From positions 5,560 through 69,559 of the forward strand of contig JAZNPH010000045.1 of assembly GCA_045589515.1 (NCBI GenBank): DNA of 64,000 nucleotides, written 5' to 3'. The translations under genes were made by a program, and so were the position numbers. The notes under the pieces were generated by a model, which was not told the origin of the DNA, ran no database searches, and saw nothing but the letters and a program-made list of their open reading frames with translations. Positions 48,161 through 64,000 of the stretch are shown one piece after another; within the stretch, counting starts at the first letter, position 1; the number at the start of each line of letters is the position of its first letter. Source of the stretch: Eubacteriales bacterium. Its GTDB lineage: Bacteria; Bacillota; Clostridia; Oscillospirales; CAG-382.

Positions 48161-48162
48161 GG

Positions 48163-51100
48163 TTATTGGATCAAGAAATAATACTCGGCCTCCGCCACGG
48201 TGATCAAGCCCTGCTCGGCGGTCAAAACCAAGCAATAGCTGTTCGCAGAGTTACCTGCAAGAGAAATCTCCAGCTCTACGGTGTGTGCAATGAAATCCTT
48301 CGTGTCGATCTTTCTGGTGACGGCGGTACTGCTGTAGGTGCCGTCCTCGCTCTTGACCATCAGAACCAGCTCCAGCTCATGAGTGGGAGGCAGGTCTGCC
48401 CAGGAGACGGTTACCACAGCGGTAGCACCCACCTCATACAGCTTTTTGTCGGCGGTGATCTTCAGAGAAACGTTTTCACTGCGCACCGCTTTCAGCTTGA
48501 GCTCGGCGGAACGGAGAAGCTCGCCGTTCATGGGAGAGCCTTCCGCACGGGAGTTGGAGGAGCGCCATTCCACAGTGAATTGGTATTCCGTCTCGGTCTC
48601 GGGGAGTAGCCCGGATACCAGAGTGACGGTGATGAAGCCGCCGCCCTGCAGCATGGGATACACAAATTCTCCGTTGCTGTTGGCGTAGATCTCGGTGGTG
48701 GCTTCCCCGTTCTTCACCAAAAGGTGAGCGTCCGCGGGAAGGGTGACTCCGGATTGCGGGATGAATACCAGAGCTTCATCGCGGTTTTTCCACTTGGAGG
48801 CAATTCCCGCAGAGGGAGTGTAGATATAGTCAAGCTCGCCGTAATTCCCAGTAGCCGACAAGGTGTAGGAGGGTGCATCCTTTAAGGAGGTAACTGCCTG
48901 TTCCTGAACGTTTGCCGCACCGGAAGCGTCAGCCTTGTCTGCCGTAAGGGCGGTGGTCAAGGTATCCCCTGCCACGGTGCTGTCCGCGCGGGAGAAGTCT
49001 ACCACAAACTGCAGATTCAACGAGCCGTTTCCGTATGAGAATTTGATCTCTTCCGTGCCGAGGCGGACAAAGGAGGTCAGCTCCAGCGACGAATAGCCGG
49101 AAGCATCTGCCCAATAGTAAATGCCGGTGTTGCGATCCAACATCAGAACCGTGGTTCCGGTAGGAAGGGCGGCACTGAACATCAGCTTTATCGCCTTGTA
49201 CTCGGTGCTGTCGTAGTTGTCCACGTCAAAATAGACGGTGAAAGCGGAATCGCGGCTGATGGTTGCGGTGTCCGTGGTCACGGTTCCGAAGACCTGGTCC
49301 TCGGTGACCTTGGAGGAGACGGTCATCAGCTTTTTGGCGTCGGAAATGGTGATGGTGATGGTACAATCGGCGGGAATGTTATTGATCACATAGACCCCAA
49401 CAGAACCGTTTGGTGTAAGCACCGCTTCGCGGTCGTCCAAACCCTCGGTTTCTGTTTGAATGGTTACCGCATGCCCTATGGGATAGAAATAGCCGCTCTG
49501 CAAGGTATATTGCAAAGTGATACCGTTTTCCAGATTCGTGCCGTTGGCTTTCTCAAGGGTATATTGGATCCCCTCTCCGCAAATGACCTCCACCTTCACG
49601 TTACCGGTAAAGAAATATACGCTGTCCGCCGCTATTTGGGGAGAGGCGTTGTAGTTTGCCCCCTCGCTGTAGCGGGCGTAGATATAGTAGTTGGTCAGAG
49701 CGACGTTCAGCTCAAATTTGGCGGCATAGCCACCTTCAAGATCGCTTCCCTTGATCCATTCGGTAGAATACTCGACGCCGTTCGCGTAATACACCACGCG
49801 GTACTCGGCGTAGGAATCGTAACCGTCAGTGCCCGTCAAAGGAGAATTGGGAACGGGATATACCGAAAGAATCGAGCCGTCTGCGTCAATATTTGCATCG
49901 AACTTGGGTTTTTCGGCAGGTGCAGACTGGTCGGCCTTGGCGATGGTATAGGTGACGGATGCGGTACAATCTCCCGCCGTTACGGAGGCGGTGTAGGTTC
50001 CCGCGTACTTGGGAATACCAACATCCGTATCCCCTTGCCGATAGGTAACGGGCAGGCTCCAGGAGGAAGAACAGTAAACGCGGACGGGATGCTCCGCCTT
50101 GTCGTATACGGTGTTTTCCGCCGTCAGGGTGATCTGCTCGCTGTATCCGCCGCACTCACAGTCTCTGCGGAGAGTTCCGCCGTTTGCGGAATAGGTATAG
50201 GTATGGGTTTCGGGGTTATGGTCGCATTTTTGCCAAACGGCGTACAGGGTCACTACCTCGCCTTTTTTGGTGGTCAGGTTGGTGACCGTATCTTGATCTC
50301 CGTACTCCACTCCGCCGTCGGGGGTAGTGGACCAGCCTTGGAACAGATAACCGGGACGCGCGAATTGATTGGCGTCCAATTGAGTGGGCATGTCGTAGGT
50401 AAAGTTGACGCTGGGCATATTGCCGGAGTAGGTCTCCCCTGCAGGCACGTTGGGATCGTAGATCACGGTGTAGCCGTTGGGTTCCCAAATGGCATACAGG
50501 ATCAAGTCGCCGATAGGCTCTCCGTCGAACGTGTAGACCGACGAGACGTTAAACCAACCGGTTGCCTCACCCGGGTGCATCCCATACTCGTAGTCATCCA
50601 AGGGATCGTCGCTTTTGCCGGAGGAGGTGTTCCAGCCCTTGATGGTATAGCCGGGGTGGCTGTAGATGTTACCGCTGATGGTTACCTTGGAACCGATTAC
50701 TATCTCCAAAGACTTATACTGTCCGGTGGTGACGTTGGTGATGGGGTCGGTGAAGTTCTCGTAATAGTGGAGCTTGTAATACGCTTTCGTAATACGGTGG
50801 TCCTCGAAGTAGTCCCCCTCTTTTTTGATGTCGACGGTGATGACGTCCGAAATACGGGGGTTGGTCATATCACCCCACAGATCCATCTGACCGCCGGTGA
50901 CGTAAATGGAGTTCTCTACGTGGGTGTTGCCGAAGTTGGAATCCTGCTTTTCTTCATCCTGATGCTGAGAGGTGGTCACGGTGACCTTACCGCCGTCCAC
51001 TCTCATGAAATCGCTTTGACCATTGTCGGCGTTGGCGCTACTGCCTTTTTCCTCCAAGCAGTAGAGGTTCAGCACCGTGGAGGTATTACCGGTGACGTAC

Positions 51101-53751
51101 ACACCGCCGCCGGAAGCCAAAGAGGAATTGTATTTGATCACGGGACAGGTAACTGCATCGGCGCGGCCGTGGGGAACGTCCGAAAGCTTATTGCCATCGT
51201 CATCCACGTGCCTCTTATTGACGCCTACCGTTACCTCGATCTTCTCGGTGCCGTCTTGTGCGCCCACAACGGCCAAAGCACCGCCGTTACCGGTGGCTTC
51301 GTTATCGCTGACAGAACCGCTGTAAACGTTAACCGTTACATTTTGATCGTTTGCGCTGACGTAGATGCCGCCGCCCATACCGTTTTGGGCAGTGTTGCCG
51401 TCCACGTTACCGCCGGTCATTTGGTAGTTACCGTTGTTGACAGCGATACCGCCGCCGCTGTTCTGCGCCGTGTTGGCAGAAATGCTGCCGTTGGTAACCT
51501 CGACGTCGCCGCCGTTGATATAGGCACCGCCGCCATTCTCGGATGCGGAGTTGCCTGTGATGCTACCGCCGTTGACGGTAAATTTGCCGCCGCCAAGGTA
51601 GACACCGCCGCCGTTTTGTGCAGCGGAATTGGCTTTGATCTCGCCGCCTTCAACGGTCATTTCGCCGCCGCCAAGGTAGACACCGCCGCCGTTTTGGGTG
51701 GAGGAGCAGCCTTTGATCACGGCTTCCCCGGAGATGGTACAAGTGCCTGCGGTCATGTAGATCGCGCCGCCGTTTTCAGCCGCACAATTTTGAATGGTAC
51801 CGCCGGAAATCTCTACGGTTCCTCGGGAATCGTTCATATACACGGCGCCGCCGTTTTGCTGGGCATAAATAAACTGAGAAGTATCGCCTGTATCCACGCT
51901 ATGGAGGGTACCGCCTGTCATTATAAAGCTACAAGGCTGGGTGCCACCTTCCGACATCAGGAACTGGCCGCTGATATCGCCGCCGGAAATATCTGCTTTT
52001 GCGTAGCCAAGGCTACCCTCGGTATTTAAAGTATCACCGCCGCCGATGGAACCGGTTTTGATGACACCGTCGGTAACGTATACTTCTGCCGCACCGCCGT
52101 TACCGCCGGTACCACCTTTGCCGCCACCGATGGAAGCGGCTGTTAAGGAGCCTCCGTTGATCTTCACGGTAGCATCGCCGCCGTTGCCTATCTCGTTTCC
52201 GGCACCGCCGCCGATGGAACCGCCGACAGTCATGGTGCCTCCCTTGACGGTAATGGTTGCGCTGCCTCCATTGCCGGATTGACTCAGGCCACCGCCGATG
52301 CCGCCGGAAAGCGTAACGTTTGCCGTTCCGGAAATCGTTACGTCCGCGCTACCGCCCACACCGCTGGCACTGTCGCCGCCGCCAATGGAGCTGGCGATCA
52401 CAGTTCCGCCGGAAATGTTGATGGTCGCTTTACCGCCTGTAGAAGTTGAGCTGTTGCCGCCGCCGATGCCGTTGCCGAAGGTACCGTAGGCTTCCACATA
52501 GCCACCCTTGATCGTGACGGTACCGGTGGCGCCGCCGGCATTAAAGGAGCTTCCGGAGCCGATGGCAACACCGCCTACCACCTTATCATATGGCTTGTCC
52601 GGGGAGGTAATATTTGAACCATTAACATAGATCTTGCCATGGTTTTTTGCGTACACTTTGCCGCCGGTAATGGTAATATTGGAAGTGCCACCGGCACTGA
52701 ACCAACCGATGCCGCCTCCAATAGCCGCCCCTGTTCCATTGCAATGGGCGATGACCTCACCACCGGAAATCGTCATGGTACAAGACCCGTTTCCGCCGGC
52801 ACCGATGGCGGTACAGTTCTCCGCATAGGTGGTCAAGACCTGCAATTTGCCACCTGCGATCTCTAAGTTGGTTACGTTTGATACGCTGTCGTTTCCGCCA
52901 ATACCGGAATTCCAATGGTTATAGCTGGCGTTAGAGTTAACAAACGCATCGATCTGATCCTCAGGCACCTTTACAGGAATATATAAAGAGCCTCCGTCGA
53001 TTGCACCGTCGCCATTAATATCCGTGATTTTCAAGGAAGAACCGGCTGCATTACCCTGCGTATAATAATGAATCGCTCGAACAATGTTTTCGCCCTTCAA
53101 ACGCAAGATTACCTTTTTTGCCAAGGACTGATTTCCCGGCTGCATATCAATCGTTCCCTGAGCGTAGCTTGCCACATAGGACGTATTCGGAACGTGACCG
53201 CTTTTTGACGGACTTCCTAAATGGATGCCGGAAAGAGTAACGTCAAAGGGATCGGCAACCGCTCCGGTAAATTGAATGGTATTGGTTGAATAAGAAGAGA
53301 CGTCACTTTGTGTGATGACGTAGATATTGGAAGCTGCATGAGTTCCGGTAACAGCTCCCCCATTACCGGAGTAAGTGGCACCCAGGGTAACGCTTCCCTT
53401 GGAAAGGTCGAAGACCACCAGCTTTCCGATGGGGCCGACGGGATCGCTTTCCGTGCCGTTGGCTTTGACGCGAATGTATTTTCCCTCGTCGACGGCGGTG
53501 ATGTCATAATAGAAGTCGTTGGCACCGCTAATGTCGGCAAAGGTCCCGTCTACAGTGTCTGCTCTCTGCCACTGATAAGAAGCAGAGGAAGCTTCGGTTT
53601 TAGCTACCAAACGGGAACCGTTGGGCAAAACGGTCACGGGAGAGGCCGCCCATACGAATACTACGAAGAAAGATAAAACAAAGACGCTTACAACAAAAAG
53701 CAGACCCACTGCATAAAGGAGATGAGCGTTTTTTACGTTGTTCTTTTTCAT
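48163..53751 (-). CDS. giant secreted surface protein (1862 aa): signal peptide, Gly-rich and parallel beta-helix (PMP-like) repeats, two Listeria-Bacteroides-type repeats, C-terminal region shared with the 1513-aa paralogue
   Basis: Signal ...VFVWA|AS. Repeats SIGGG..., NGGGVYLGGG.., NGGAIYM, NGGALAV. GYTIKGWNTS...LYAIWE and GYLFQGWSTTPDG...LYAVWQ are Flg_new/List_Bact-type repeats. No LPXTG, SLH or C-terminal TM. Confidence 0.8.
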   Translation of the reverse strand: MKKNNVKNAHLLYAVGLLFVVSVFVLSFFVVFVWAASPVTVLPNGSRLVAKTEASSASYQWQRADTVDGTFADISGANDFYYDITAVDEGKYIRVKANGTESDPVGPIGKLVVFDLSKGSVTLGATYSGNGGAVTGTHAASNIYVITQSDVSSYSTNTIQFTGAVADPFDVTLSGIHLGSPSKSGHVPNTSYVASYAQGTIDMQPGNQSLAKKVILRLKGENIVRAIHYYTQGNAAGSSLKITDINGDGAIDGGSLYIPVKVPEDQIDAFVNSNASYNHWNSGIGGNDSVSNVTNLEIAGGKLQVLTTYAENCTAIGAGGNGSCTMTISGGEVIAHCNGTGAAIGGGIGWFSAGGTSNITITGGKVYAKNHGKIYVNGSNITSPDKPYDKVVGGVAIGSGSSFNAGGATGTVTIKGGYVEAYGTFGNGIGGGNSSTSTGGKATINISGGTVIASSIGGGDSASGVGGSADVTISGTANVTLSGGIGGGLSQSGNGGSATITVKGGTMTVGGSIGGGAGNEIGNGGDATVKINGGSLTAASIGGGKGGTGGNGGAAEVYVTDGVIKTGSIGGGDTLNTEGSLGYAKADISGGDISGQFLMSEGGTQPCSFIMTGGTLHSVDTGDTSQFIYAQQNGGAVYMNDSRGTVEISGGTIQNCAAENGGAIYMTAGTCTISGEAVIKGCSSTQNGGGVYLGGGEMTVEGGEIKANSAAQNGGGVYLGGGKFTVNGGSITGNSASENGGGAYINGGDVEVTNGSISANTAQNSGGGIAVNNGNYQMTGGNVDGNTAQNGMGGGIYVSANDQNVTVNVYSGSVSDNEATGNGGALAVVGAQDGTEKIEVTVGVNKRHVDDDGNKLSDVPHGRADAVTCPVIKYNSSLASGGGVYVTGNTSTVLNLYCLEEKGSSANADNGQSDFMRVDGGKVTVTTSQHQDEEKQDSNFGNTHVENSIYVTGGQMDLWGDMTNPRISDVITVDIKKEGDYFEDHRITKAYYKLHYYENFTDPITNVTTGQYKSLEIVIGSKVTISGNIYSHPGYTIKGWNTSSGKSDDPLDDYEYGMHPGEATGWFNVSSVYTFDGEPIGDLILYAIWEPNGYTVIYDPNVPAGETYSGNMPSVNFTYDMPTQLDANQFARPGYLFQGWSTTPDGGVEYGDQDTVTNLTTKKGEVVTLYAVWQKCDHNPETHTYTYSANGGTLRRDCECGGYSEQITLTAENTVYDKAEHPVRVYCSSSWSLPVTYRQGDTDVGIPKYAGTYTASVTAGDCTASVTYTIAKADQSAPAEKPKFDANIDADGSILSVYPVPNSPLTGTDGYDSYAEYRVVYYANGVEYSTEWIKGSDLEGGYAAKFELNVALTNYYIYARYSEGANYNASPQIAADSVYFFTGNVKVEVICGEGIQYTLEKANGTNLENGITLQYTLQSGYFYPIGHAVTIQTETEGLDDREAVLTPNGSVGVYVINNIPADCTITITISDAKKLMTVSSKVTEDQVFGTVTTDTATISRDSAFTVYFDVDNYDSTEYKAIKLMFSAALPTGTTVLMLDRNTGIYYWADASGYSSLELTSFVRLGTEEIKFSYGNGSLNLQFVVDFSRADSTVAGDTLTTALTADKADASGAANVQEQAVTSLKDAPSYTLSATGNYGELDYIYTPSAGIASKWKNRDEALVFIPQSGVTLPADAHLLVKNGEATTEIYANSNGEFVYPMLQGGGFITVTLVSGLLPETETEYQFTVEWRSSNSRAEGSPMNGELLRSAELKLKAVRSENVSLKITADKKLYEVGATAVVTVSWADLPPTHELELVLMVKSEDGTYSSTAVTRKIDTKDFIAHTVELEISLAGNSANSYCLVLTAEQGLITVAEAEYYFLIQ
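51586..51696 (-). repeat. 78-nt in-frame tandem repeat inside the beta-helix region (33-nt core identical)
   Basis: gccgccgccaaggtagacaccgccgccgttttg occurs at 51586-51618 and again at 51664-51696. It encodes NGGGVYLGGG(E/K)(M/F)TV(E/N)GG(E/S)I... 26-aa units. Confidence 0.8.
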
Positions 53752-53766
53752 AGTGCGTCTCTCCTT

Positions 53767-54588
53767 TTATGATGATAGGTCTTCTTTCTTGGCAATGTAT
53801 ATACCGTCGATGGTAATGATGAAATCTTCTATGGTATAGTTTTCGGGGTTGTCCACAAAGAAGCGGTAGGTATAGGAAGAATAGTTCTTGGTGAAGTTTG
53901 CGCTGTCTTTAAAAGAAATTGCTTGATAGGCGCCGTCTTTATAGTTATAGATCTCCCGCAGGGCGGGGTCGGTATTGTCGGGAATCAAGCCTGCTTTATC
54001 GCAGGAGACATACAGGGCACCTGCCACATTCTCCGTCCACACCGTAAGCAGGACGTAGGCGCTGTGAGAGGTATCCAGGTGTTTATACACGTTTTCCGCT
54101 TGGTCGGAAACGCGGAATTCTGCAGTCAAGGTCTGTTCGTAGCCTGCTTCTCCTGTGGCAACCACCGTATAGGTATTCCCCTTTTGGAGCTCCGACAGGG
54201 TGATGGTAACAGAAGACAGCTCGTTCCCCTTCAAGGTTCCGCCGGATACGCTGAGGGTGGGAGCGGGGGTCTGCTCTTCCTTGCAGGTCACGGACAGGGT
54301 GTAGGTTATATCGTCCTCGGAAAAACGCAGTTTGTCGATATGGTTTTCCAGAGTAAAAGTAACCGAGGTGGAGGTTGCATTCAGGACGTACTCTCCCTTG
54401 GTCTCTTTTAAAAGATTGCTGGTGAAGTAAAACTCCTTGGCATCAAACAGGTTTTCACCTTCGTTGGAATGGATATACTTGGCGAAAACACCGCCAAGGA
54501 TGGCCATCAGCACCACCGCCAGAACGCCGGTGATGATGTATTTGCGCTGAGAAAAGAACTTGTTATGGGATTTGCTTTGCTTTTCCAT
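53767..54588 (-). CDS. medium (273 aa) secreted protein with SipW-cognate-like N-terminus; paralogue of 59775..60521
   Basis: ...YIITGVLAVVLMAILGGVFAKYIHSNEGENLFDAKEFYFTSNLL. Shares FY..S(D/N)LL, LR.SE and PDNTDP motifs with the 248-aa protein. Start at 54588 (MEKQSK) is preceded by AAAGGAGA. Confidence 0.6.
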   Translation of the reverse strand: MEKQSKSHNKFFSQRKYIITGVLAVVLMAILGGVFAKYIHSNEGENLFDAKEFYFTSNLLKETKGEYVLNATSTSVTFTLENHIDKLRFSEDDITYTLSVTCKEEQTPAPTLSVSGGTLKGNELSSVTITLSELQKGNTYTVVATGEAGYEQTLTAEFRVSDQAENVYKHLDTSHSAYVLLTVWTENVAGALYVSCDKAGLIPDNTDPALREIYNYKDGAYQAISFKDSANFTKNYSSYTYRFFVDNPENYTIEDFIITIDGIYIAKKEDLSS

Positions 54589-54605
54589 CGGCAAGTCTCC
54601 TTTCG

Positions 54606-55197: not shown

Positions 55198-58100
55198 TTA
55201 CTCCAAGACAATCAAGCTGATGGGAACCTGAATCGTCTCGTTGTCGTTGTACGCTTTCAACAGCAAACGATAGGTTCCGGGAGATGTTTCGCCGCTGAGC
55301 TTCACCACCACGGTACCGTCTGCCAATAAACCGCATTTAAACACGCCGTAGTCGCCCTGTGTTACATCGTTCACCGCTTCGATGACGTTGGTTTGCGTCA
55401 CGTAGGCGGCGCCGATCTTCCTTTGGCATTCCACGGTAATAGTGTCGGCATTTTGGGTTTTAAGTTTCACGGTCAGTGCTGTGGTAAGCTCCTCGGTGTG
55501 GAGCAAACGATCGCTGACGAAATCCACCCGCAATGATGGTTTCGTTTTGTCGGAGACAGCAAGATTCACGGGAGCTGCAACGGCATTCCCCATCATCGGG
55601 GCAGAGCCGTCTGCGGTTGCGGACGCCCAAAGCTCTATTTTCAACGTAGCAGACTTTACCGTTGGCGAATGGAAGGAAAGCGTTACAGTTCCATCCCCCT
55701 CCTGGACAGACGGCAAAGGAATCAAGAAGGTTCCTGCACCGGACATGTAATAGCGGGAATCTCCCACTTTTACATAGGAATTCACAGGAAGTGCCGACGA
55801 AGATCCCGAGCTGATCACCAAAGAGAAATTTCTGTTGGTGTAGCGGGAATCAGAAACGGAGCACTCCGTTTTGTAATCCAGTGTGATCTCTTCCTCCACG
55901 GAAACGGATACCTGAGAGGTGGAGAGGGAAAACTCCCTCTTTTTCACCGTTTGGAAGGTTAGAGAAGCAGGCGCGGTATCGTCCGTGCCGGATTTGATAG
56001 TCCTTTGCAGGGAAACGGTGTTGGTTCGGCAGGTCTCCCCCGCTTCCGGGAAGGAGACGAGGAATAGCAACCGCTCCGTTGTCACCGCTGTGCTTTGGGA
56101 CTCTGTAAAGAACCCGTTTTCGCCCATGACCTTGAAGGATTTCAAAGGAATCTCGGTGGACGTCCCGTCTGCCGTATAATGATAATACTTCAGAGACGCA
56201 GAATCCGTCCAGTCGATCATGGTGATGGTGGTGCCTTCTGCCAAAGGCTTTCCGTTTTCAAAAACAAGCTTGAGATCCTGATAGTTGGCAGGAATATAGT
56301 CCTTTGTGACAAACTGTGCCGTAAAGGCAGAATCGGCGCTGACCACCGCACTTGTTTTCCCTTCGAAGGGAACGAAGACTTTACCTGCAACAATGGCAGA
56401 GCTGGTTGCTTCAGCCGCGGCAAGCTCGCGGCGGATGGTGATGAACACCGGTACGATAACGCCGTTATCCCCTACCAGCGTCAGTGCAACAGTACGTTCC
56501 GTTACGATATCGCTGAGAGCGTTTGCGTTTTCGATGGTGAAGATAAATTCGGGAGCTGTGTTCCTCGGCAAGGATCCGACCAAGGTATCGTCCTTTTTGA
56601 TGGGAACGGGGGGGCTTCCCACTTCGTCGGTGGCGCTGTTTTTCACCGAAACCTTGATACGGAAGTTTTCGTTTGCTTCCGCACTGGAGGCGGAGCTGAA
56701 GTCATACGTGCCGTCCATCAGGTTCACGTTGAAGGGTGTAATATGCTTGATGGAATAAGACTGAGCCAATATAAACTGTGGGAGAACGAAGGATGCGGTT
56801 TTGGAACCGTCCAGAGGCTCGCCCTTGGCCGCAGTCAAGGTGATCGATTTGGGAACTTCCGGAGTATATTGGAGCGTAATGGTACAGCCATCGGTAGATT
56901 GGATACCTGCAGTACTGTTGGAGCCAATGGTATAATGATAATAGCCACGGCTGTGCCAACGGATCTTCATACCTGCGAGCTGGGGATACTCCGTATCCTC
57001 CCCTGTGTATTTCAGGGGCACGGAAATAACACTGACCGACCCGTTGTTGATGATATCTCCATCTGCTATCACCTTAATGGCAGTAACCTCTTCCCAGGTT
57101 TTTCCGGAAGGAAGCGTTTCCACCCAATTTTGGGCACTATAAGCTTGATCGTAATTTTTCACTTCGTCAAAGCAATATCGAAGCTTTAATGGGGTCCCCT
57201 GCTGATTGTGCAGCGTTGGAGCGGAGCTGACCGCCAAAGTGATGTCGCACTGCTCCACAAAGTTGGAGTTGAGATCAAAGCCCTTCTTGGCGATGGGGAT
57301 GATGTAGTAGAAATCTTTTGCAGTACCGCCTTCGATGCACTTCACCTGCAACTGATAGGTAACGATATCCGCAAAGTTCTCCATGGGAACGTTGCTTCCG
57401 CTTTCTCCCTTGGAATTGATCAGGCTGTCAGTAATATCCAGCTCTGCGGGACGGGCAAAAAAGGTGACGGAGCCTGCAGAAGCGAAGCACCCCACATTAT
57501 CGCCGGTTCTCCCGTCACCGGTCAAGTCATACGTATCTTTTACAGCATTCTTTGAATACGAACCTCCGGCACCATTGCTCCTTTTATATCCGGCAACAAA
57601 CACACATTCGCGCAAATTAATCGTTCGGGTCGACATCGTGCTGTCGCTATTCAATTGAAGCGAAAACGATAATGTATTGCCGTGGGGCAATGCCCCTAAA
57701 GTCTCGTTATAATATCCAATCTTTTCGCCTCGTTTAAACTCGATGATGTAAAAAACATCCGTTGCACTAACCGGTTTAGGGGTTACATTAGCAACCTCAA
57801 GCGTTCCGCCCACATATTTGGCGGTAATGGAAGCAGTATTCACCGTAACGCCTTTGGGCAAAAGAAGACCGAGTCGAATATCGTTGAGACACGCATTACT
57901 GGTATAAGGGTATCGAATGACAAACACTCTGCCGCTAATTGTGACAGAACCGCCTGCATTTACGGAATTCGAAGATAGCGCAGCAGCTTCCAAGCCGTAT
58001 GATACACCGGTACCGTTGTCAAAAACCGAACTGCAGGTTGCATTGAAAACTTTATTCTTCTCCTCGCCGTCAACGGTGTATAACGTAATTCTATGCACCG

Positions 58101-59739
58101 GCTTTATAGCAGGCATCTCGGAAATGTTCACATATCCCCAAATCGTGCCGGCGGAATATGCGGCAGAAGAGGCACCGGCGTGGTATGCTTTACTGTTTCC
58201 CGGCAGATTCCCCATAGAATAGGAAAGCATTTTGAAATAATATGCACGATGATCCGCCGGAAGATTATTGCGGGAAAAAACCAGATAATGAGCTTCTGTT
58301 ATGGTTTTGCCCGGAGAGTAGTGCGGATTCTTGACAGAAGTCGTGAAAGAGCGCCCCTCAAAGGCAGGATTTCCGTCCCGATCCACCAAAGTATACTCAA
58401 TGGAAATCATCTCCGTATCTCTGTCACACATCAAGTTGACGGTGGTAACAGATACATGGTTTGTTTCATTGGTATCAAAAGAAAGTTCTATCCAAAGAGG
58501 CCCGCTACCGTTCAATGCGGAATCGTTGCGCATGGCAAGCGTTCCCATTAACTGAACTGCCTCCAAATCCAAAACATTTGCTTTCCCGTTCACGGTGTGA
58601 GCCTTTAAAACCGCCTCGGTATTGGTATCAAGGCGAATTGCAAAAGTATGATCCTTTAACGTTCTTCCGTCAATACTTACGGAAACCTTACCGTAGAATG
58701 TATAGTTGCCGGGAACGGATTTTAGTGCTTCCGGCGCTGAAAACAGAATTTCAAACAATTTTGAACTTTTGAAATACATCTGCTCTGCTCTGATTTGAAC
58801 AACACCCGTCTCCTCGTCATAAGATTCCGTAAACACAGGTGTCCCATTCGCCGTCGACAAAGAAACATTGCTGTACTTCAATCTATGGGTCGTACCGCTC
58901 ACGGTACACACAGGAAGACTGATACTGACCTTTAAATCTTTAATCAGATTATCACAACCTAAATTGTTCGATGAAAAATAAGAAAAAATAGTTTTAAGAG
59001 TCCCTTCGGCACCCATAATATCCGTGGCAACGGAGGAACCGCCAACCAAATAGGACGAAGTCGTCGTCTCATACGAAAGCTGACCGGAAACGGTGATCTG
59101 TTTCAAAGAAACCGAAGGTCCAACCGGTTCAAAAACACCTTCCCCATTTTCCTGCATCAACGTGAATTTCAAAAGCGGGGTTTCCCCATCGCCCAGGCCA
59201 CTGCCATTCTGCTTATCCCATAGGCCAGGGGTAAATCGGAACGGCAAGCTCATGGTAAGCGCATTTAAGCCCTCATTCAAGGTATAGGTCAATTGAGCAT
59301 AACTGTACTTATGCGGCGTATATTCTCCATCGGTATTGACCGTAAAAGGATCATTTCTCTGTGCCGTGATGGTAGCGTCCCCAGAAGAAGGATCGTCGGT
59401 TAGATTCACATACAGCACAGGGTCCATTTCAATTACGAAACGGTACTGCTTGTCCGTGGACATACCATCTATCTGAAGCCACAAATAACGGTCCGTGGAG
59501 GTGTAGTTTGCGTTGTCATACTCCCAGTCGGTCAATTTGGAGCCTTCCTGTGTGAGAGGGGTATCCAAGCTGGCTCGGTCGGCGTCGAAATACAGTCCCG
59601 CAGAGAAGCTGACATCACCTGCGGTATAAACCGCTTCTTCGGCGGCGGCAACCGTCGGGAGCGGGGGCATCAGGGGACAAAGGACGCAAAAGGTCAAAAG
59701 CCCTGCCAACAAACGCAATCCGATTCTTCTGTTGTTCAT
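55198..59739 (-). CDS. giant secreted surface protein (1513 aa), no recognised catalytic or anchor motif; C-terminal ~380 aa homologous to the 1862-aa protein
   Basis: Signal peptide ...LPTVAAA|EEA and a long beta-rich sequence. C-terminal VSADSAFTAQFVTKDYIPANYQDLKLVF...GTTITMID matches ISRDSAFTVYFDVDNYDSTEYKAIKLMF...GTTVLMLD of the other giant. Confidence 0.75.
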   Translation of the reverse strand: MNNRRIGLRLLAGLLTFCVLCPLMPPLPTVAAAEEAVYTAGDVSFSAGLYFDADRASLDTPLTQEGSKLTDWEYDNANYTSTDRYLWLQIDGMSTDKQYRFVIEMDPVLYVNLTDDPSSGDATITAQRNDPFTVNTDGEYTPHKYSYAQLTYTLNEGLNALTMSLPFRFTPGLWDKQNGSGLGDGETPLLKFTLMQENGEGVFEPVGPSVSLKQITVSGQLSYETTTSSYLVGGSSVATDIMGAEGTLKTIFSYFSSNNLGCDNLIKDLKVSISLPVCTVSGTTHRLKYSNVSLSTANGTPVFTESYDEETGVVQIRAEQMYFKSSKLFEILFSAPEALKSVPGNYTFYGKVSVSIDGRTLKDHTFAIRLDTNTEAVLKAHTVNGKANVLDLEAVQLMGTLAMRNDSALNGSGPLWIELSFDTNETNHVSVTTVNLMCDRDTEMISIEYTLVDRDGNPAFEGRSFTTSVKNPHYSPGKTITEAHYLVFSRNNLPADHRAYYFKMLSYSMGNLPGNSKAYHAGASSAAYSAGTIWGYVNISEMPAIKPVHRITLYTVDGEEKNKVFNATCSSVFDNGTGVSYGLEAAALSSNSVNAGGSVTISGRVFVIRYPYTSNACLNDIRLGLLLPKGVTVNTASITAKYVGGTLEVANVTPKPVSATDVFYIIEFKRGEKIGYYNETLGALPHGNTLSFSLQLNSDSTMSTRTINLRECVFVAGYKRSNGAGGSYSKNAVKDTYDLTGDGRTGDNVGCFASAGSVTFFARPAELDITDSLINSKGESGSNVPMENFADIVTYQLQVKCIEGGTAKDFYYIIPIAKKGFDLNSNFVEQCDITLAVSSAPTLHNQQGTPLKLRYCFDEVKNYDQAYSAQNWVETLPSGKTWEEVTAIKVIADGDIINNGSVSVISVPLKYTGEDTEYPQLAGMKIRWHSRGYYHYTIGSNSTAGIQSTDGCTITLQYTPEVPKSITLTAAKGEPLDGSKTASFVLPQFILAQSYSIKHITPFNVNLMDGTYDFSSASSAEANENFRIKVSVKNSATDEVGSPPVPIKKDDTLVGSLPRNTAPEFIFTIENANALSDIVTERTVALTLVGDNGVIVPVFITIRRELAAAEATSSAIVAGKVFVPFEGKTSAVVSADSAFTAQFVTKDYIPANYQDLKLVFENGKPLAEGTTITMIDWTDSASLKYYHYTADGTSTEIPLKSFKVMGENGFFTESQSTAVTTERLLFLVSFPEAGETCRTNTVSLQRTIKSGTDDTAPASLTFQTVKKREFSLSTSQVSVSVEEEITLDYKTECSVSDSRYTNRNFSLVISSGSSSALPVNSYVKVGDSRYYMSGAGTFLIPLPSVQEGDGTVTLSFHSPTVKSATLKIELWASATADGSAPMMGNAVAAPVNLAVSDKTKPSLRVDFVSDRLLHTEELTTALTVKLKTQNADTITVECQRKIGAAYVTQTNVIEAVNDVTQGDYGVFKCGLLADGTVVVKLSGETSPGTYRLLLKAYNDNETIQVPISLIVLE

Positions 59740-59774
59740 TGCTTTCTCCCCCCTTCGATGTCGTTGAAAATTTC

Positions 59775-60521
59775 TTACGGAACTGCTTTTGTCACAGTGA
59801 TCTGGCTGCTGTAATCCTTGGCGGGATCATTTTTATAAAAAGTAAACGTATACTGAGAATTTGCTTTGACGGTCACTTGGCAGGACATTCCGCTTGCGAA
59901 AGCCAGCAAAGGATCCGTATTATCGGGGACGACGCCATCAAGCCAGGAAATGATAACGTCCCCATGATAATCCGTCGTGGTAACGACAACATGCAGAAAA
60001 GGACTACCTATATTGTCATTTACCTGAACAGCCAGGTCAACGTTTTCCGCCACAACGGTGAAGCGCCCCTGCAATCTGGTTACGTAGGGAGACGTAGACG
60101 TGACGGTAACGGTGTAAACACCCGGTTCAAGGCCGTCAAAGGTAACGATCTCTTCGTCTCGAACACCCGCAGACAACGCAATGGTTTGCTTTTTCTCCCC
60201 GAAAGAAGAGGTCAGCACCACCTCGCATTGAACGGCAGTCTCGGAAACCCGTAATTCGTCGGGATAGTTCATCAACCGAAAGGAGATCTCCTTGACACCC
60301 GCTTGCAGAGTATACAAGGGAATCGGTTCGGTTTCAACCGCCAAAAGATCGCTTTCCAAGTAGAAGCTTTTGGCAATATAGGGCGTATCGGAGGTTTCCG
60401 CCGAAACGTATTTTGCCAACGTATACACACCCGCAGACACCGCAACGGCAAGCACGAGAAACGCCGTCACGGACAGGAGAATCATTCTGTTGTGGCGGGG
60501 AACTTGCTTGCGATTGTTCAC
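59775..60521 (-). CDS. medium (248 aa) secreted protein with SipW-cognate-like N-terminus; paralogue of 53767..54588
   Basis: ...MILLSVTAFLVLAVAVSAGVYTLAKYVSAETSDTPYIAKSFYLESDLL... and ...GVVPDNTDPLL.... Confidence 0.6.
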   Translation of the reverse strand: MNNRKQVPRHNRMILLSVTAFLVLAVAVSAGVYTLAKYVSAETSDTPYIAKSFYLESDLLAVETEPIPLYTLQAGVKEISFRLMNYPDELRVSETAVQCEVVLTSSFGEKKQTIALSAGVRDEEIVTFDGLEPGVYTVTVTSTSPYVTRLQGRFTVVAENVDLAVQVNDNIGSPFLHVVVTTTDYHGDVIISWLDGVVPDNTDPLLAFASGMSCQVTVKANSQYTFTFYKNDPAKDYSSQITVTKAVP

Positions 60522-60532
60522 CGGATTACCTC

Positions 60533-61039
60533 TTAATCGATCTGTTCTGTTTCTATAATCACCTGCAAAGCGTCCATTTCAAACGCTTGGGTAGCAGGCT
60601 GGGGAGATTCCCAAAGGATCTGTACCTCGTAGGTAACGGATTGAGATTCCCCTGCGTGGAAAACGCCTTGGATCTTGTCGATCTTCGTTTGCTCTCCCCC
60701 ATCCACCTTAAAGTACGTAAAGGCGAGGGGAAGGTTTTTCGTCAGATTGATCACCTTGACGCGGTATGTCTGGGCAACCTCGCAGACGGAACCGCCCTCC
60801 GTGTTTGTTATGGTAAAGCGGATGCGGTTTTCTTCACCCGGGGCGGCATACAGATCGGACAGGGTATAGGTCGCATCCCCGGCCATCAGCGCCACACGGG
60901 CGGAATCCTGCCCCGAGGATTTGGTGAGATAACGAGCATAGAGTCCCGACAGCATGGCAGTGGTGAAGGCGGTTGCGCACAAAAGAATCAATGCGAGACG
61001 CATGGTGAACTGTCCGCTAAGTATCCGTTTTTTGTCCAC
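60533..61039 (-). CDS. small (169 aa) TasA/camelysin-like candidate fibre subunit with SipW-cognate-like signal
   Basis: Start set at GTG 61039 (AAGGAGGG 6 nt upstream), because alignment with the 163-aa paralogue begins at DKKRILSGQFTMRLALILLCATAFTTAMLSGLYARYLTKSSGQDSARVA. Ends ...IIETEQID. Confidence 0.6.
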   Translation of the reverse strand: MDKKRILSGQFTMRLALILLCATAFTTAMLSGLYARYLTKSSGQDSARVALMAGDATYTLSDLYAAPGEENRIRFTITNTEGGSVCEVAQTYRVKVINLTKNLPLAFTYFKVDGGEQTKIDKIQGVFHAGESQSVTYEVQILWESPQPATQAFEMDALQVIIETEQID

Positions 61040-61055
61040 GATGCGCCCTCCTTTT

Positions 61056-61643
61056 TTAGTCTTCGGTCTTCTCTTGCGTGTCTTCGGGTTGGTTCTGCAT
61101 AGATTGCAGGCGGCGGATCTCTTCCTTGATCTGCTCCAATTCATCCATGGATTCCTGTTTTTCCTTGCGGAAGGAACGTTCCATCAGGAAGAAAGCGGCG
61201 CCGAGGATGAGAATGATGCCCAAGGGAGAACGGATGAAGGTGAGGATCAGCCCCACATAGGGCAGAGAGGCCACCACTTCCCCTTTGATGTCGGAAAGCT
61301 TGATGGCGGGATCCGCAGTTTGATTGGCATCCCCTTGGGTGACGACGGATTCACCGTCGATGGAAATGATGCGGTGGACGATGAGTGTTCCGTAGCTTTG
61401 GTACACCACCACGTCCCCCACCTCGTAGGAATCCCGCGCGATGACGATGATCATATCGTTGACTTGAAGCTCCGGTTCCATGCTGCCGGAAAGCACCACG
61501 GAGGTTGCGAAGCCCAAGGGCATGGGCATTTTGTTGCCGCCGAGGCTGCGGGCGTTCCAGGAATACAATTGGATTCCCAGAAAAGCACCTGCCAGGGCGA
61601 TGATCACAATGCGCAGGATCAGGCGTTTTGTGTTGGTCTTCAT
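61056..61643 (-). CDS. sipW: archaeal/ER-type signal peptidase I (SipW-like, S26B)
   Basis: VLSGSMEPELQVNDMII...GDVVVY...LIVHRII...TQGDANQTADP is the Ser/His S26B pattern as in B. subtilis SipW. A C-terminal TM helix is followed by a charged tail. ATG at 61643 forms an ATGA overlap with the upstream stop. Confidence 0.88.
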   Translation of the reverse strand: MKTNTKRLILRIVIIALAGAFLGIQLYSWNARSLGGNKMPMPLGFATSVVLSGSMEPELQVNDMIIVIARDSYEVGDVVVYQSYGTLIVHRIISIDGESVVTQGDANQTADPAIKLSDIKGEVVASLPYVGLILTFIRSPLGIILILGAAFFLMERSFRKEKQESMDELEQIKEEIRRLQSMQNQPEDTQEKTED

Positions 61644-62560
61644 AAGGTATCGTATGCAGAGTGTCTGTTTTTTGCTTGGTAAACCACGTAAAGCCCTGCA
61701 AGGGCCGCCAAAGCGATCAACAACCACCAGAAGGTAGAGTTATCGTCCCCGGTGACAGGCAGGTCGCCGCTGCTGTTATCGGAATCGGCACTTTGCTTGG
61801 CGTTGGTTTCGATGATCACGGTGAGGGTGACCTCCTGGTTTTCCACTGCAAGGTTGCCCAGGTATGTGTCGTACTCGTCGTCCCCTTCAAAAGCCCATTC
61901 CCAATCCATGGTGTAGGTATGCTGTCTGCCTGCGCCGATGGTGCTTTCGCACACCATGCCGTCCAGATCCAGAATATCCTCAAAGGAATCTTCGGAGCCT
62001 ACGGCATAGCTTCCGTCGGCAGTGCGGAGGCGCACCTTGATGGGAACGTCGTGATCGCTGAAGTTGACGAAGGCGGAAAGGTCCAGAGAGTAATCCAAAG
62101 CGAAATCGCCGGAATTTTCCAGAGTGAAGGTATATGCGTTGGAGGTGCCGGGGGCGATGACCTTATCGGTGCCGCCGTCCACGGTGATCTTGCCCTCCCC
62201 GTTTTCATAGGAGACCTTGAACAGCTCCACGTTGGTAATGCCGTTCCAGATGGTATTTTCGTCCGCGGGAGTGGAAGACGTATCCAGAGGACGGAAGGTG
62301 TTCAACGCATAGGGAGAAGCGGGGATCTTCAGCTCCGCTTCGGGGAAGGTGATGCGGCCGTCTTCATCCATTCTGCCCACACGCACGGTGGTACGTGCGT
62401 GGGAGCGGGTAAGGGAAAACACGTTGCGGGAGGGCTCGCCGGAAAAGGGAGTGAGGCGGCTACCCAGCATCACCAGAGCGCAGGCTTCGAAAAGGAGCAG
62501 CAAAGCGATGAGAACGCTGAACACGCTGTTATTCTTTTTGAGGCTTTTGTACTCGTTCAT
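61640..62560 (-). CDS. TasA-like-domain surface protein with LPXTG cell-wall sorting signal
   Basis: N-terminal TM/signal. Body motifs SNAYTFTLENSGDFALDYSL and HTYTMDWEWAFEGDDEYDTYLGNLAVENQEVTLTVIIET parallel the 235-aa protein (FDISWKWLFEGDN...DTVLGDAA...LKIDITVTQ). C-terminus LPVTGD plus hydrophobic helix plus KNRH. Confidence 0.7.
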   Translation of the reverse strand: MNEYKSLKKNNSVFSVLIALLLLFEACALVMLGSRLTPFSGEPSRNVFSLTRSHARTTVRVGRMDEDGRITFPEAELKIPASPYALNTFRPLDTSSTPADENTIWNGITNVELFKVSYENGEGKITVDGGTDKVIAPGTSNAYTFTLENSGDFALDYSLDLSAFVNFSDHDVPIKVRLRTADGSYAVGSEDSFEDILDLDGMVCESTIGAGRQHTYTMDWEWAFEGDDEYDTYLGNLAVENQEVTLTVIIETNAKQSADSDNSSGDLPVTGDDNSTFWWLLIALAALAGLYVVYQAKNRHSAYDTL

Positions 62561-62644
62561 ATACGCTTTTATCCTCCTTTTGGGTAGGTTGTAGGAAGTT
62601 CTCTTCCCTTTGTAGACTTCCGTAGGAGCACGGGAGCTTGCAAA

Positions 62645-62693
62645 GAAAAAAGAGGGGAATACGCCCCTCCGACCCGGCCACGTCGGGTCGGAG
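62645..62693 (-). terminator. intrinsic terminator/attenuator directly after the 235-aa subunit gene
   Basis: Minus strand: ctccgacccg-acgtgg-ccgggtcggag, then gagggg-cgtatt-cccctc followed by ttttttc. Confidence 0.7.
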
Positions 62694-62722
62694 AGACGAA
62701 AAGTGCTTTTTTGTGTGTTTGA

Positions 62723-63430
62723 TTAGTCGATCTGGGTAACGGTGATATCGATTTTAAGACCAATATTCAAATCTGCCAATGCAGCAGCATCGCCAAGCAC
62801 GGTATCGTACACATCGGTCTGTTTAATCTTCTCGCCGGAGTTATCACCTTCGAACAGCCATTTCCAACTAATGTCAAACGCTGTACCATTAGTAATCTCG
62901 GACAAATCCTTGTTAGGATCATACTTTGCAGAGTATGCCTCGATTTTTTCTTCAACGGCAGCGATAAAGCCGTCCGCATTATCATAATCTAAACCAGAAA
63001 CAGTTTCAGTACCAATGGTAAAGACAACAGGGCAGTAGAACTTGTCTACTTCGTCTACTTCAACCAACCAATTATCAGAAAGAGTCATGGTCGCCACAAA
63101 CTTTACGTCAACTGCAACCTCAGGAGTTCCTGCAAGCGTAATCTCGGTAAGCTTACCCTGAGTACCGGGGGCGAGAACAAAATCCTTGTCACCAGTTCCA
63201 GAAGATACAGAATAAGTTCCGGTAAAATTATCATCTTCTTTCGCGTAGTCTTTTAAAAACAAGGTGTTGTTTTCAGCAACGATTTTAACACCGAACTTTG
63301 CAACTCTTGCGGTGTCGGTTGCGCTGTCAGAAGTAACATACTTCGCGAAGGTGCCGCTGATGGCGCAGGTGGACATGAGAACTGCGATCAAGAGAACGGA
63401 AGCCAGTCTCATCATCTTGTTTTTCTTCAT
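62723..63430 (-). CDS. 235-aa TasA/BsaA-like candidate major fibre subunit with SipW-cognate-like signal
   Basis: MKKNKMMRLASVLLIAVLMSTCAISGTFAKYVTSDSATDTARVAKFGV... with a strong SD (GAAAGGAG). Followed by its own terminator. Ends ...IDITVTQID. Confidence 0.65.
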   Translation of the reverse strand: MKKNKMMRLASVLLIAVLMSTCAISGTFAKYVTSDSATDTARVAKFGVKIVAENNTLFLKDYAKEDDNFTGTYSVSSGTGDKDFVLAPGTQGKLTEITLAGTPEVAVDVKFVATMTLSDNWLVEVDEVDKFYCPVVFTIGTETVSGLDYDNADGFIAAVEEKIEAYSAKYDPNKDLSEITNGTAFDISWKWLFEGDNSGEKIKQTDVYDTVLGDAAALADLNIGLKIDITVTQID

Positions 63431-63733
63431 AAAAATTTTTCTCCTTTCATGTTGGTTCCGATTTACGATCAGAACCTTTTATTTATCCCTCACGGGAGAA
63501 TATTGCCGGGCATCCACGTGTTTTTTATGGTTGCCCATCGCGGAGAATGCCGCGGCATTTTTTATATTCACCCTCAGCGTGGCTTCCGAGGGATAAATAA
63601 CGGTTGTGTAGATGCGGTGGGGAGGCAATCCCCTCCGTCTCGCTATCGCGAGCCACCTCCCCTTGCTAAGGGGAGGCTTTTTGGCGAGGGAAAGACGGGT
63701 GGGTAGATTCGCGGGAGGCAATCCCTCAAAAAT

Positions 63734-64000
63734 TCACTCTGCCTTATTCTCTTCGGGGGCAGATTCTTTCGAAGGAGCTTCCGCAGGTTCTTCCGCAGGC
63801 GCTTCCGAGGGAGCGGTATTGGCGTTCTGCTGAGCCTGACGGGCGCGGAGGGTTTCCAGCTCTGCCAAGAGGGCCTTGGTGTCCGCTTGCTTTTCCTTAT
63901 CGAACTTGCGGCGGCGGAGCATCTCATAGGCGACAAAGATGCCCACGGGAAGGACGATGCACACCAGCAGACCGGGAGTGGTCTGGAGGAACATGGCCAC
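63734..64000 (-). CDS. 3' end of a second SipW-like signal peptidase gene (5' part outside the window)
   Basis: FLQTTPGLLVCIVLPVGIFVAYEMLRRRKFDKEKQ...LLAELETLRARQ aligns with the C-terminal TM helix and charged tail of the SipW at 61056..61643 (FIRSPLGIILILGAAFFLMERSFRKEKQ...EEIRRLQS). The catalytic part is not visible. Confidence 0.55.
   Translation of the reverse strand: MAMFLQTTPGLLVCIVLPVGIFVAYEMLRRRKFDKEKQADTKALLAELETLRARQAQQNANTAPSEAPAEEPAEAPSKESAPEENKAE

Follow-up and report, generated by a model that had tools for sequence, protein, structure and literature searches.

A minus-strand locus of gut Clostridia with paired SipW-type signal peptidases and giant secreted proteins, proposed to encode a wall-tethered fiber of the TasA/BsaA superfamily

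Introduction

It is established from the TasA system of Bacillus subtilis and the BsaA system of Clostridium perfringens that a dedicated archaeal-type signal peptidase, donor-strand subunits and accessory subunits can form one system, and papers from 2024 to 2026 describe loci of the TasA superfamily that encode dedicated peptidases together with adaptors, tip subunits and LPXTG or membrane anchors. Here, we report a computational analysis of a locus with related components in a 64,000-nucleotide stretch of DNA from an Eubacteriales bacterium (contig JAZNPH010000045.1, positions 5,560 to 69,559 of the forward strand), hereafter the window. The locus encodes, in the order of transcription, a signal peptidase (S26a), a 235 amino acid (aa) protein (p235), a 306 aa protein (p306), a second signal peptidase (S26b), and two successive sets of a small, a medium and a giant protein (small1, med1 and giant1, followed by small2, med2 and giant2). 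In our assessment, this locus probably encodes a chaperone-free, donor-strand-assembled surface fiber of the TasA/BsaA superfamily that is tethered to the cell wall.

The tapA-sipW-tasA operon of B. subtilis resembles this locus in several respects: a dedicated peptidase of the archaeal/endoplasmic reticulum (ER) type is encoded beside its substrates, the signals end in a G-T-x-A-x-[FY]-type motif, TasA is a β-sandwich subunit whose fiber was the top Foldseek match of p235, and TapA is an accessory protein with a donor-type N-terminus encoded beside the major subunit. However, the proteins described here have no significant sequence similarity to TasA or to Pfam Peptidase_M73, two peptidases are encoded, and a covalently anchored LPXTG paralogue would take the place of TapA-mediated attachment. 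Additional small and medium classes and the giants, as well as the occurrence in anaerobic gut Clostridia, further set the locus apart from that of B. subtilis.

The sipW-bsaA-bsaB-bsaC operon of C. perfringens likewise encodes clostridial SipW-dependent subunits of the TasA superfamily, with several paralogues per operon (PMC7395162; bioRxiv 10.1101/2024.11.04.621531), and the NCBIfam BsaA model TIGR04090 was the best, sub-threshold, profile match of the small family and of the "post" proteins that are encoded after the giant in some related loci (29-46 bits versus a cutoff of 60). BsaA-like genes located next to LPxTG, sortase and signal-peptidase genes have already been noted by the authors of that work (Obana 2020; Kivimaki 2025), and a BsaA subgroup has an intermolecular isopeptide lock based on an N-E-K triad (donor Asn, acceptor Lys and catalytic Glu), which was not identified in our locus. 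In contrast to the wall attachment proposed here, BsaA oligomers have been reported to be membrane-anchored; moreover, BsaC (a VWA protein) is absent from our locus, while the Bsa operon has neither giants nor a second peptidase.

Each component of our proposed layout finds a counterpart in the haloarchaeal tafi system (PMC11821415), where TafC is a two-domain donor-strand tip (compare the medium proteins), TafE a shaft-like small adaptor (the small proteins), TafA the shaft (p235), TafF a subunit-like acceptor with a C-terminal anchor (p306), and TafD a dedicated signal peptidase I. By this analogy, the p235-p306-small-medium layout would map one-to-one on the tip-adaptor-shaft-anchor model of tafi, which differs in being archaeal, in using Tat instead of Sec-type signals and a membrane instead of a sortase anchor, and in having one peptidase and no giants. 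In AbpX loci (bioRxiv 10.64898/2026.01.04.697558), fiber genes also occur alongside genes for a dedicated signal peptidase I and for LPXTG or SLH anchors, which are predicted to join the fiber by donor-strand complementation. The AbpX peptidase, however, is a ten-transmembrane form, whereas both peptidases of our locus are short and SipW-like, with N-terminal and C-terminal hydrophobic segments; in addition, AbpX loci are rich in cyclic di-GMP and two-component regulators, none of which was seen here.

Finally, SpaA-type sortase pili are alike in being wall-anchored filaments with an LPXTG base and tip adhesins, and a cluster of this type lies immediately upstream of the locus in one close relative (L001/L008). 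We rejected a SpaA-type pilus as an explanation for the locus in the window, given that none of its ten proteins has a SpaA, Cna_B or Sortase Pfam match, that the operon has no pilus-specific sortase, and that a sorting signal is found only on p306; assembly would differ as well, proceeding by strand exchange and not by sortase transpeptidation.

We found no published description of a conserved peptidase pair flanking shaft and anchor genes, of the small and medium accessory classes, of obligatory giants as exchangeable modules, or of the abundant p235 family in gut Clostridia. A preliminary description of this DNA had presented the combination of features as one not known from a described system; this stands for the paired peptidases and the giants, which are undescribed in the literature that we found, and not for the remainder, as fiber loci with LPXTG anchors, adaptors and tips have been published. 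With this locus, the donor-strand principle known from TasA, BsaA and tafi would reach a bacterial form that has several subunits and is anchored by sortase. If such loci build wall-anchored fibers bearing giant adhesins, they would represent a major unrecognized surface structure of dominant gut commensals, with a bearing on adhesion to mucus, fiber particles and other cells, on biofilm formation, and on phage and immune recognition.

Results and Discussion

A conserved operon with a duplicated small-medium-giant module

The locus is made up of ten reading frames, all on the minus strand and at or near the positions first proposed for them. Ribosome-binding sites (RBSs), overlapping junctions and a terminal terminator (a hairpin followed by U6 after giant2) make it a single operon, in agreement with the one-strand run of short or overlapping junctions that had been claimed in the preliminary description. 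The gene order given there, including the repeated small-medium-giant module, was also borne out by the frames and by sequence comparison of the two copies: identity amounts to 41.5% between small1 and small2 (E = 3e-29) and to 27.6% between med1 and med2 (E = 1e-16), and giant1 and giant2 have a common C-terminal stretch of approximately 350 aa (E = 4e-15).

Neighborhood context was taken from 86 related loci of other genomes, whose frames were classified by best single-sequence match and gene position because iterated profiles merged paralogous families. The same gene order recurs in approximately 80 loci, namely S26a (~220 aa), a p235-like gene, a p306-like gene, S26b (~190 aa), a small gene, sometimes a medium gene, and a giant (1300-2300 aa), which argues that the arrangement is not due to chance. 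The core of S26a, p235, p306 and S26b keeps its order across many Clostridia, and the genes of the locus, which the preliminary description had treated as belonging together, are thus tightly linked.

A scan of one genome per species identified p235 relatives in at least 356 species genomes. The carriers are mostly metagenome-assembled genomes (MAGs) of Oscillospiraceae, Acutalibacteraceae, Lachnospiraceae, Ruminococcus, Saccharofermentans and unclassified Clostridia from human, ruminant and other guts, while a few belong to Erysipelotrichaceae, Mogibacterium and Parolsenella. Parolsenella and Erysipelotrichaceae are not known as spore formers. This distribution bears on the possibility that the locus encodes a spore appendage or coat structure instead of a fiber of vegetative cells, an idea suggested by the fact that many carriers are spore-forming Clostridia, that endospore appendages are widespread in Firmicutes, and that TasA was first described as spore-associated and is named "spore coat-associated protein N" in PDB entry 5OF1. 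Yet some carriers are MAGs of Parolsenella and Erysipelotrichaceae, neither sporulation genes nor a sporulation promoter were identified beside the locus, and attachment to peptidoglycan by a sortase speaks for the wall of vegetative cells. We regard a spore structure as very improbable.

p235, p306 and the small proteins are members of one superfamily

The putative major subunit, p235, belongs to an abundant family: at E ≤ 1e-3, it has homologues in 7054 sequence clusters, every one of which is labelled hypothetical and lacks a Pfam domain; indeed, no Pfam or NCBIfam model covers this family. An alignment with 65 homologues of 52-63% identity revealed invariant residues at the end of the signal (G26, T27, A29, K30 and Y31, in the motif SGTFAKY) and in a predicted strand (A41, R42, A44, K45, G47 and V48, in the motif ARVAKFGV). 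E104 and D209 are also invariant, and N173 is nearly so. In addition, a single Cys (C133, in F-Y-C-P) and the C-terminal Gln (Q233, in T-Q-I-D) are invariant in the 65 homologues, and a C-terminal Q-[IV]-D is common to p235 and the small proteins. Given the invariance of K45, E104, D209, C133 and Q233, a covalent bond within or between p235 subunits is conceivable.

The small proteins have the signal SGLYARY, and A36, Y38, D46 and A48 are invariant in their family; the medium family has a signal of the form GGVFAKY (as in med2) with invariant A36 and Y38. An A-[KR]-Y motif is thus found without exception at the end of the hydrophobic N-termini of p235, small and medium proteins. Profile-profile comparison by hhalign matched the p235 family with the small family over 205 columns (99.9% probability) and with the p306 family over 191 columns (99.2%), and the small family with the "post" family over 111 columns (96.1%) and with the medium family over 77 columns (95.5%). 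The match between p235 and the medium family (93%) covered 47 columns, corresponding to the signal and N-terminal stretch only. On these profile comparisons, we consider the homology of p235, p306 and the small proteins to be settled. The preliminary description had proposed three size classes of cognate-signal proteins; the signal motif is indeed common to them, and the medium proteins have nothing beyond the signal and N-terminal stretch in common with the other two.

p306 shares the motifs DKV(V/I)APGT, WxWxFE and DxxDTxLG with p235 and lacks the ARVAKF strand, in place of which there is a variable low-complexity spacer. Its C-terminus, LPVTGDDNSTFWWLLIALAALAGLYVVYQAKNRH, comprises LPVTG, a hydrophobic segment and a charged tail. 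The protein scored 20.9 bits against TIGR01167 (cutoff 15.9), and this result, together with the hhalign match to the p235 family, supports the earlier assignment of p306 as an LPXTG member of the same family. Most members of the p306 family carry xPxTG(D) followed by a transmembrane segment; this motif is similar to (S/P)PxTG, the type of signal that sortases of clostridia recognize. It should be noted that these anchor proteins are devoid of the A-[KR]-Y motif and that many of them carry [FVL]-S-R-[LI]-x-x-F after the hydrophobic segment (e.g., GSRLTPF, VSRLDSF and FSRLTFF).

A remote relationship with TasA and BsaA

The TasA/BsaA relationship of this superfamily is real but remote. The AlphaFold2 monomer of p235 (predicted local distance difference test [pLDDT] score 86) is a β-sandwich with three helices, preceded by a low-confidence linker, and the invariant A41-V48 stretch follows this linker. 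A Foldseek search of the PDB with this model returned as top match the cryo-EM structure of the TasA fiber (8AUR_A; E = 4e-3, probability 0.89), aligned over the full length in 242 columns, and no other match had a probability above 0.2. In addition, hhalign placed the SGTFAKY motif of p235 on GGTWAAF of TasA.

A second line of evidence comes from TIGR04090, a model of the BsaA family of SipW-dependent biofilm matrix proteins (cutoff 60 bits), which was matched by more members of the small family than any other model. Sub-threshold matches were obtained for 7 of 61 small-family members (best E = 8e-5), and four of the five "post" paralogues from related loci matched at 29-46 bits, with E-values down to 7e-12, again below the cutoff. 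These matches of the small and "post" proteins indicate that the p235 superfamily is a remote branch of the BsaA/TasA superfamily. Extreme sequence divergence has been reported for the TasA superfamily, and the p235 branch fits this picture. At the level of annotated models, p235, small1, small2, med1 and med2 had no Pfam or NCBIfam match at E ≤ 0.1, and no match to TIGR04088, the model of the SipW-cognate signal, was reported. The TasA/BsaA-like character ascribed to the locus in the preliminary description consequently holds, as a remote similarity, for p235 and the small proteins (through 8AUR, TIGR04090 and the signal motif) and fails for the body of the medium proteins.

Two conserved signal peptidases flank the shaft and anchor genes

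S26b is a complete peptidase that matched NCBIfam TIGR02228 (archaeal/ER-type signal peptidase I; 74.7 bits, cutoff 51.85) as well as Pfam Peptidase_S26. Ser, His and Asp are present in its motifs SGSMEP, VHRI and GDAN, which makes it a Ser/His enzyme with His at the position where bacterial-type enzymes carry Lys. Its score against the equivalog model of Bacillus SipW was 65 (cutoff 190), which marks it as an enzyme of the same type but not an orthologue of Bacillus SipW. As for S26a, the 88 aa present in the window are 86-88% identical to full-length a-type peptidases found at the same position in related loci (L071, L081 and L001/L008), from which its identity as a peptidase was deduced.

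Two archaeal/ER-type peptidase genes flank the p235-p306 pair in the window and in most of the 86 related loci. The upstream (a) and downstream (b) enzymes constitute two distinct orthologous groups: the best match of every a-type peptidase is another a-type, the best match of nearly every b-type is a b-type, and identity is 48.5% among a-type and 42.5% among b-type enzymes, compared with 31.4% across the two groups. The catalytic residues are retained in both groups (Ser in 68/68, His in 68/68 and Asp in 55/68 a-type orthologues; Ser in 76/76, His in 74/76 and Asp in 72/76 b-type orthologues). Separate orthologous groups with retained catalytic residues indicate that the pair is old and conserved and not a local accident, and both dedicated peptidases are apparently active, as judged from these residues. 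The S26B-type Ser/His pair that had been attributed to the peptidases was read directly in S26b and found in the orthologues of both types.

Two signal classes stand alongside the two peptidase groups in the window and in related loci. The enzymes may split their substrates accordingly between G-x-[FY]-A-[KR]-Y (p235, small and medium proteins) and [FVL]-S-R-[LI]-x-x-F (the anchor family). A conserved pair of catalytically intact archaeal-type peptidases offers a route to study how SipW-type enzymes choose their substrates.

A model for fiber assembly

The gene system is well supported by the components and the homologies among them, by active sites that are intact, by the sorting signal and by the conserved gene order. 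We infer the following mechanism by analogy with TasA, BsaA and tafi. After export of p235, small and medium proteins by Sec, the dedicated peptidases would cut within or next to G-x-[FY]-A-[KR]-Y, in the manner of SipW, which cleaves TasA at TWA/AF. Cleavage would free a conserved N-terminal strand (ARVAKFGV in p235 and DSARVAKF in the small proteins) that would insert into the β-sandwich of a neighboring subunit, and by such insertion p235 would polymerize as the shaft. The position of the invariant ARVAKFGV behind a low-confidence linker and its absence from the anchor paralogue lend this step indirect support. p306 would accept a strand while donating none and would be linked to peptidoglycan by a housekeeping sortase, which would place it at the base of the fiber. 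The small proteins, as both donors and acceptors, would act as adaptors, and the donor-like N-terminus of the medium proteins on a non-TasA body would suit the distal end, as an initiator or tip. Finally, and most speculatively, the giant β-helix and Ig (immunoglobulin)-rich proteins would be adhesins displayed on, or delivered with, the fiber via their cognate small/medium pair, in which case the window would encode two alternative tip modules.

Several results weigh against this model. No protein of the window reached the curated cutoff of any TasA, BsaA or M73 (PF12389) model in Pfam or NCBIfam, a profile search of PDB sequences with p235 returned nothing relevant, and in hhalign comparisons with a verified TasA sequence the alignment of each family was confined to the signal peptide, with a probability below 8%. 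The structural match between p235 and 8AUR has a template-modelling (TM) score of only 0.30 and a root-mean-square deviation of 9.6 Å. Moreover, the structure models are of single chains. The medium proteins were rejected as TasA-like subunits, since the AlphaFold2 model has two Ig-like domains and TasA is absent from its Foldseek matches, and the giants carry ordinary signals and have C-termini with no profile similarity to the fiber families. In addition, a motif search and phmmer detected no sortase-like frame in the 64-kb window. A sortase is encoded within 10 kb in 14 of the 86 related loci, and its position directly after the cluster in several of them speaks for the anchor.

The medium proteins

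med2 has 286 homologues, and med1 scored 253 bits against the hidden Markov model of the medium family. The AlphaFold2 model of med2 (pLDDT 89.9) consists of an N-terminal helix, a short disordered linker and two Ig-like β-sandwich domains, and Foldseek matched it with generic tandem-Ig proteins, including PapD-like pilus chaperones, ASH/CEP192 domains, RbmA and WxLIP (TM 0.2-0.4). A tandem-Ig body that finds no TasA match characterizes the medium protein as a cognate-signal protein whose body is unrelated to TasA; a role as a PapD-like chaperone is a weak idea, as the model matches tandem-Ig proteins generically.

The resemblance to two-domain chaperones is also one of the points that would fit an export or processing platform, in which the A-[KR]-Y proteins stay anchored in the membrane by uncleaved signal-anchors and, together with both peptidases, mature the giants or help them to cross the wall. 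The hydrophobic N-termini were modelled as long helices, and Bsa protein secretion in C. perfringens needs extra machinery, which would agree with such a function. However, the invariant motif at the end of the hydrophobic region resembles the cleavage motif of TasA, dedicated peptidases with intact active sites imply that cleavage takes place, the body of p235 resembles the TasA fiber subunit, the LPXTG paralogue suggests a wall-attached structure, and the chaperone matches are of the generic two-Ig-domain kind. An export platform is quite unlikely in our view, and the wall-tethered fiber remains our preferred interpretation.

The giant proteins and their exchange between loci

giant2 contains NGGG[VI]Y repeats spaced approximately 26 aa apart in a Gly-rich region (residues 633-880) that, from this motif pattern, is probably a parallel β-helix. 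It also harbors one Listeria-Bacteroides repeat (Pfam Flg_new, 32.5 bits, cutoff 27), has no match among PDB sequences, and clusters with 46 giants from related loci. For giant1, no match was found in Pfam, NCBIfam or PDB sequences, and relatives were detected only in L015 and L048. The presence of a TasA-like acceptor domain in the giants was considered and rejected, as hhalign of their C-terminal 200 or 450 aa against all five fiber families gave no signal.

The related loci fall into two types. In type I loci (e.g., L004:13178-18309, L009, L029, L045 and L079), the giant ends in a WLNGNS...N(R/K)KG-like sequence and is followed by the "post" protein of approximately 185 aa. This protein is BsaA-like and has an N-terminus of the form GTV(I/L)AYMF(R/K)QTE..N.F.PA.VSC.V.E. 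In type II loci, a medium gene precedes a giant that ends in a YYFIVR-like or CCVVGGY-like sequence, and there is no "post" gene. The window is of type II, with the cargo module present twice and no "post" gene. Giant type and accessory gene co-vary: all ten giants with a medium gene upstream and no WLNGNS-type C-terminus lack a "post" gene, which is found downstream of 21 of the 25 motif-positive WLNGNS-type giants. This co-variation suggests that the Asn-rich C-terminal segment of the giant and the "post" protein interact, perhaps through strand insertion or a covalent lock.

These results bear on whether the giants are part of the fiber system at all. It could be that the fiber is real and the giants are unrelated, i.e., independent co-transcribed adhesins or enzymes, with the small and medium proteins as minor fiber subunits. 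The ordinary Sec signals of the giants, the C-termini devoid of similarity to the fiber families, and the swapping of giant types between close relatives are compatible with this proposal. It is at odds with the finding that, in almost all loci of sufficient length, the small/medium genes are followed by a giant of 1300-2300 aa, with the co-variation described above, and with the tight junctions of 11-35 nucleotides (nt) in this part of the operon, and we consider it unlikely. Conserved linkage and co-variation with accessory genes thus argue that the giants belong to the system. The preliminary description had called them passengers: the ordinary signal peptides and the lack of an anchor were found as described, and the label "passenger" reflects their linkage.

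Comparison of the window with its nearest relatives (L008, L020 and L071) showed that identity falls along the operon, from 88% for S26a and 84-87% for S26b to 62-63% for p306, 46-56% for p235 and 41-52% for the small proteins, and the giants of these relatives are of a different type from those of the window. This fall indicates that the processing core is conserved while exposed parts diverge fast and the cargo is exchanged. The small-medium-giant modules of the window are closest to those of distant genomes (L033/L046 from Saccharofermentans, L064, L080 and L015). This pattern suggests cassette exchange of small-medium-giant modules.

A more far-reaching possibility, which we hold to be rather doubtful, is a modular display system in which a conserved core of peptidases, shaft and base would be combined with interchangeable small-medium-giant cassettes that plug megadalton-scale adhesins onto the fiber end. 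The window would then hold two such cassettes, and each peptidase may serve one signal class. If true, Gram-positive gut commensals would have a novel means of displaying and swapping giant adhesins without sortase polymerization.

Gene coordinates and RNA elements of the operon

The features of the operon are listed in Table 1. Three start codons were revised from the sequence, each with an RBS, and two of them coincide with database gene calls. S26b starts at ATG 61643, overlapping the p306 stop as ATGA; small1 starts at GTG 61039 behind AAGGAGG, giving the same 168 aa protein as database gene call P0186; med1 starts at GTG 60521 behind AAGAGG; and med2 starts at ATG 54588 behind GAAAGGAGA, giving the same 273 aa protein as database gene call P0236. 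With the revised starts, the junctions measure, in the order of transcription, 303, 162, -4, 16, 11, 35, 100, 17 and 15 nt, and they are thus short or overlapping except for the two spacers that border p235.

Table 1. Features of the operon in the window, in the order of transcription
Feature	Coordinates	Strand	Description
S26a	63734-64000	minus	Last 88 aa only, with a transmembrane segment and charged tail; catalytic part past the window edge
303-nt intergenic region upstream of p235	63431-63733	minus	Hairpin at 63640-63700 and RBS GAAAGGAGA
p235 (235 aa)	62723-63430	minus	Putative major fiber subunit; signal end SGTFAKY, strand ARVAKFGV, β-sandwich body
Structured RNA element 3' of the p235 stop	62640-62722	minus	Includes a terminator-like hairpin and U-run at 62670-62651
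p306 (306 aa)	61640-62560	minus	p235 paralogue; LPVTG sorting signal, hydrophobic segment, charged tail; putative wall-anchored base
S26b	61056-61643	minus	Complete archaeal/ER-type (SipW-type) signal peptidase I
small1 (168 aa)	60533-61039	minus	Short p235-like subunit; signal SGLYARY, strand DSARVA; putative adaptor
med1 (248 aa)	59775-60521	minus	Cognate-type signal VYTLAKY; two Ig-like domains predicted by homology to med2
giant1 (1513 aa)	55198-59739	minus	Secreted; ordinary Sec signal (TVAAA/EE), no anchor, no known domain; rare giant type
small2 (163 aa)	54606-55097	minus	Second short p235-like subunit; signal SGLYARY, strand DSARVAKF
med2 (273 aa)	53767-54588	minus	Signal GGVFAKY, conserved AKEFYFTSN segment, two Ig-like β-sandwich domains; putative tip/initiator or giant adaptor
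giant2 (1862 aa)	48163-53751	minus	Secreted, adhesin-like; ordinary signal peptide, Gly-rich repeats, no anchor; common giant type
Intrinsic terminator of the operon	48105-48162	minus	Hairpin (-24.1 kcal/mol) followed by UUUUUU, z-score -4.74, just past the giant2 stop

The intergenic region upstream of p235 folds at -25.4 kcal/mol (z-score -2.9) and is probably the promoter region of the major-subunit gene. In relatives, the spacer between S26a and p235 has a median length of 134 nt and the second spacer bordering p235 a median of 139 nt, the other junctions being tight. The element that follows the p235 stop folds at -32.4 kcal/mol (z-score -4.4) and overlaps the terminator-like hairpin and U-run; in 63 relatives, the 130 nt past the stop of the p235 homologue have a median folding energy of -47 kcal/mol, versus -31 kcal/mol inside the gene. 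It is probably a partial terminator or an mRNA stabilizer that sets subunit stoichiometry. Long spacers and a hairpin, as present around p235, are typical of operons in which a strongly expressed major subunit precedes accessory genes of lower abundance. Two mutually exclusive hairpins in this element use the same GGAGGGG, one a long stem of -32 kcal/mol and the other a shorter terminator-like stem with the U-run. The element could be a regulated attenuator and not a simple terminator.

Neighboring genes

In one of the nearest relatives (L001/L008:876-8529, Oscillospiraceae bacterium SIG690), the SpaA-type pilus cluster located immediately upstream of S26a encodes a VWA+SpaA tip pilin, a SpaA pilin, a sortase, a Cna_B protein and a third S26 peptidase. 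The contig of the window might hold a similar cluster beyond nt 64000.

Directly downstream of the operon, a 625 aa 5'-nucleotidase/metallophosphoesterase (Pfam Metallophos and 5_nucleotid_C) is encoded at 46142-48019 on the minus strand, behind a promoter-like region of its own. The C-terminus of this protein comprises IPATGD, a hydrophobic segment and a KRKKK tail, which makes it a second likely sortase substrate adjoining the locus.

A complete type IV pilus cluster is located at 28874-41269 on the minus strand and ends 6.9 kb from the operon terminator. It encodes a PilB-like ATPase (T2SSE+MshEN), a PilT-like ATPase, PilC (T2SSF), a prepilin peptidase (A24), a PilM fusion and two N_methyl pilins, and its pilus genes are followed by proteins with cohesin and cadherin-like domains (30108-32057 and 28874-30124). 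This cluster may be relevant because the secretion of Bsa proteins by C. perfringens has been connected with type IV pilus genes. No homologues of PilB, PilC, PilD, PilM or pilins were detected within 10 kb of the p235 homologues in the 86 related loci, whose flanks are shorter than the distance that separates the two clusters in the window.

Finally, a 156 aa frame at 45424-45894 on the minus strand has the N-terminal motif HTKWNCKYHIVFAPKYRRK and strong hairpins near it (45321-45344); it resembles an IS200/IS605-type transposase (TnpA).

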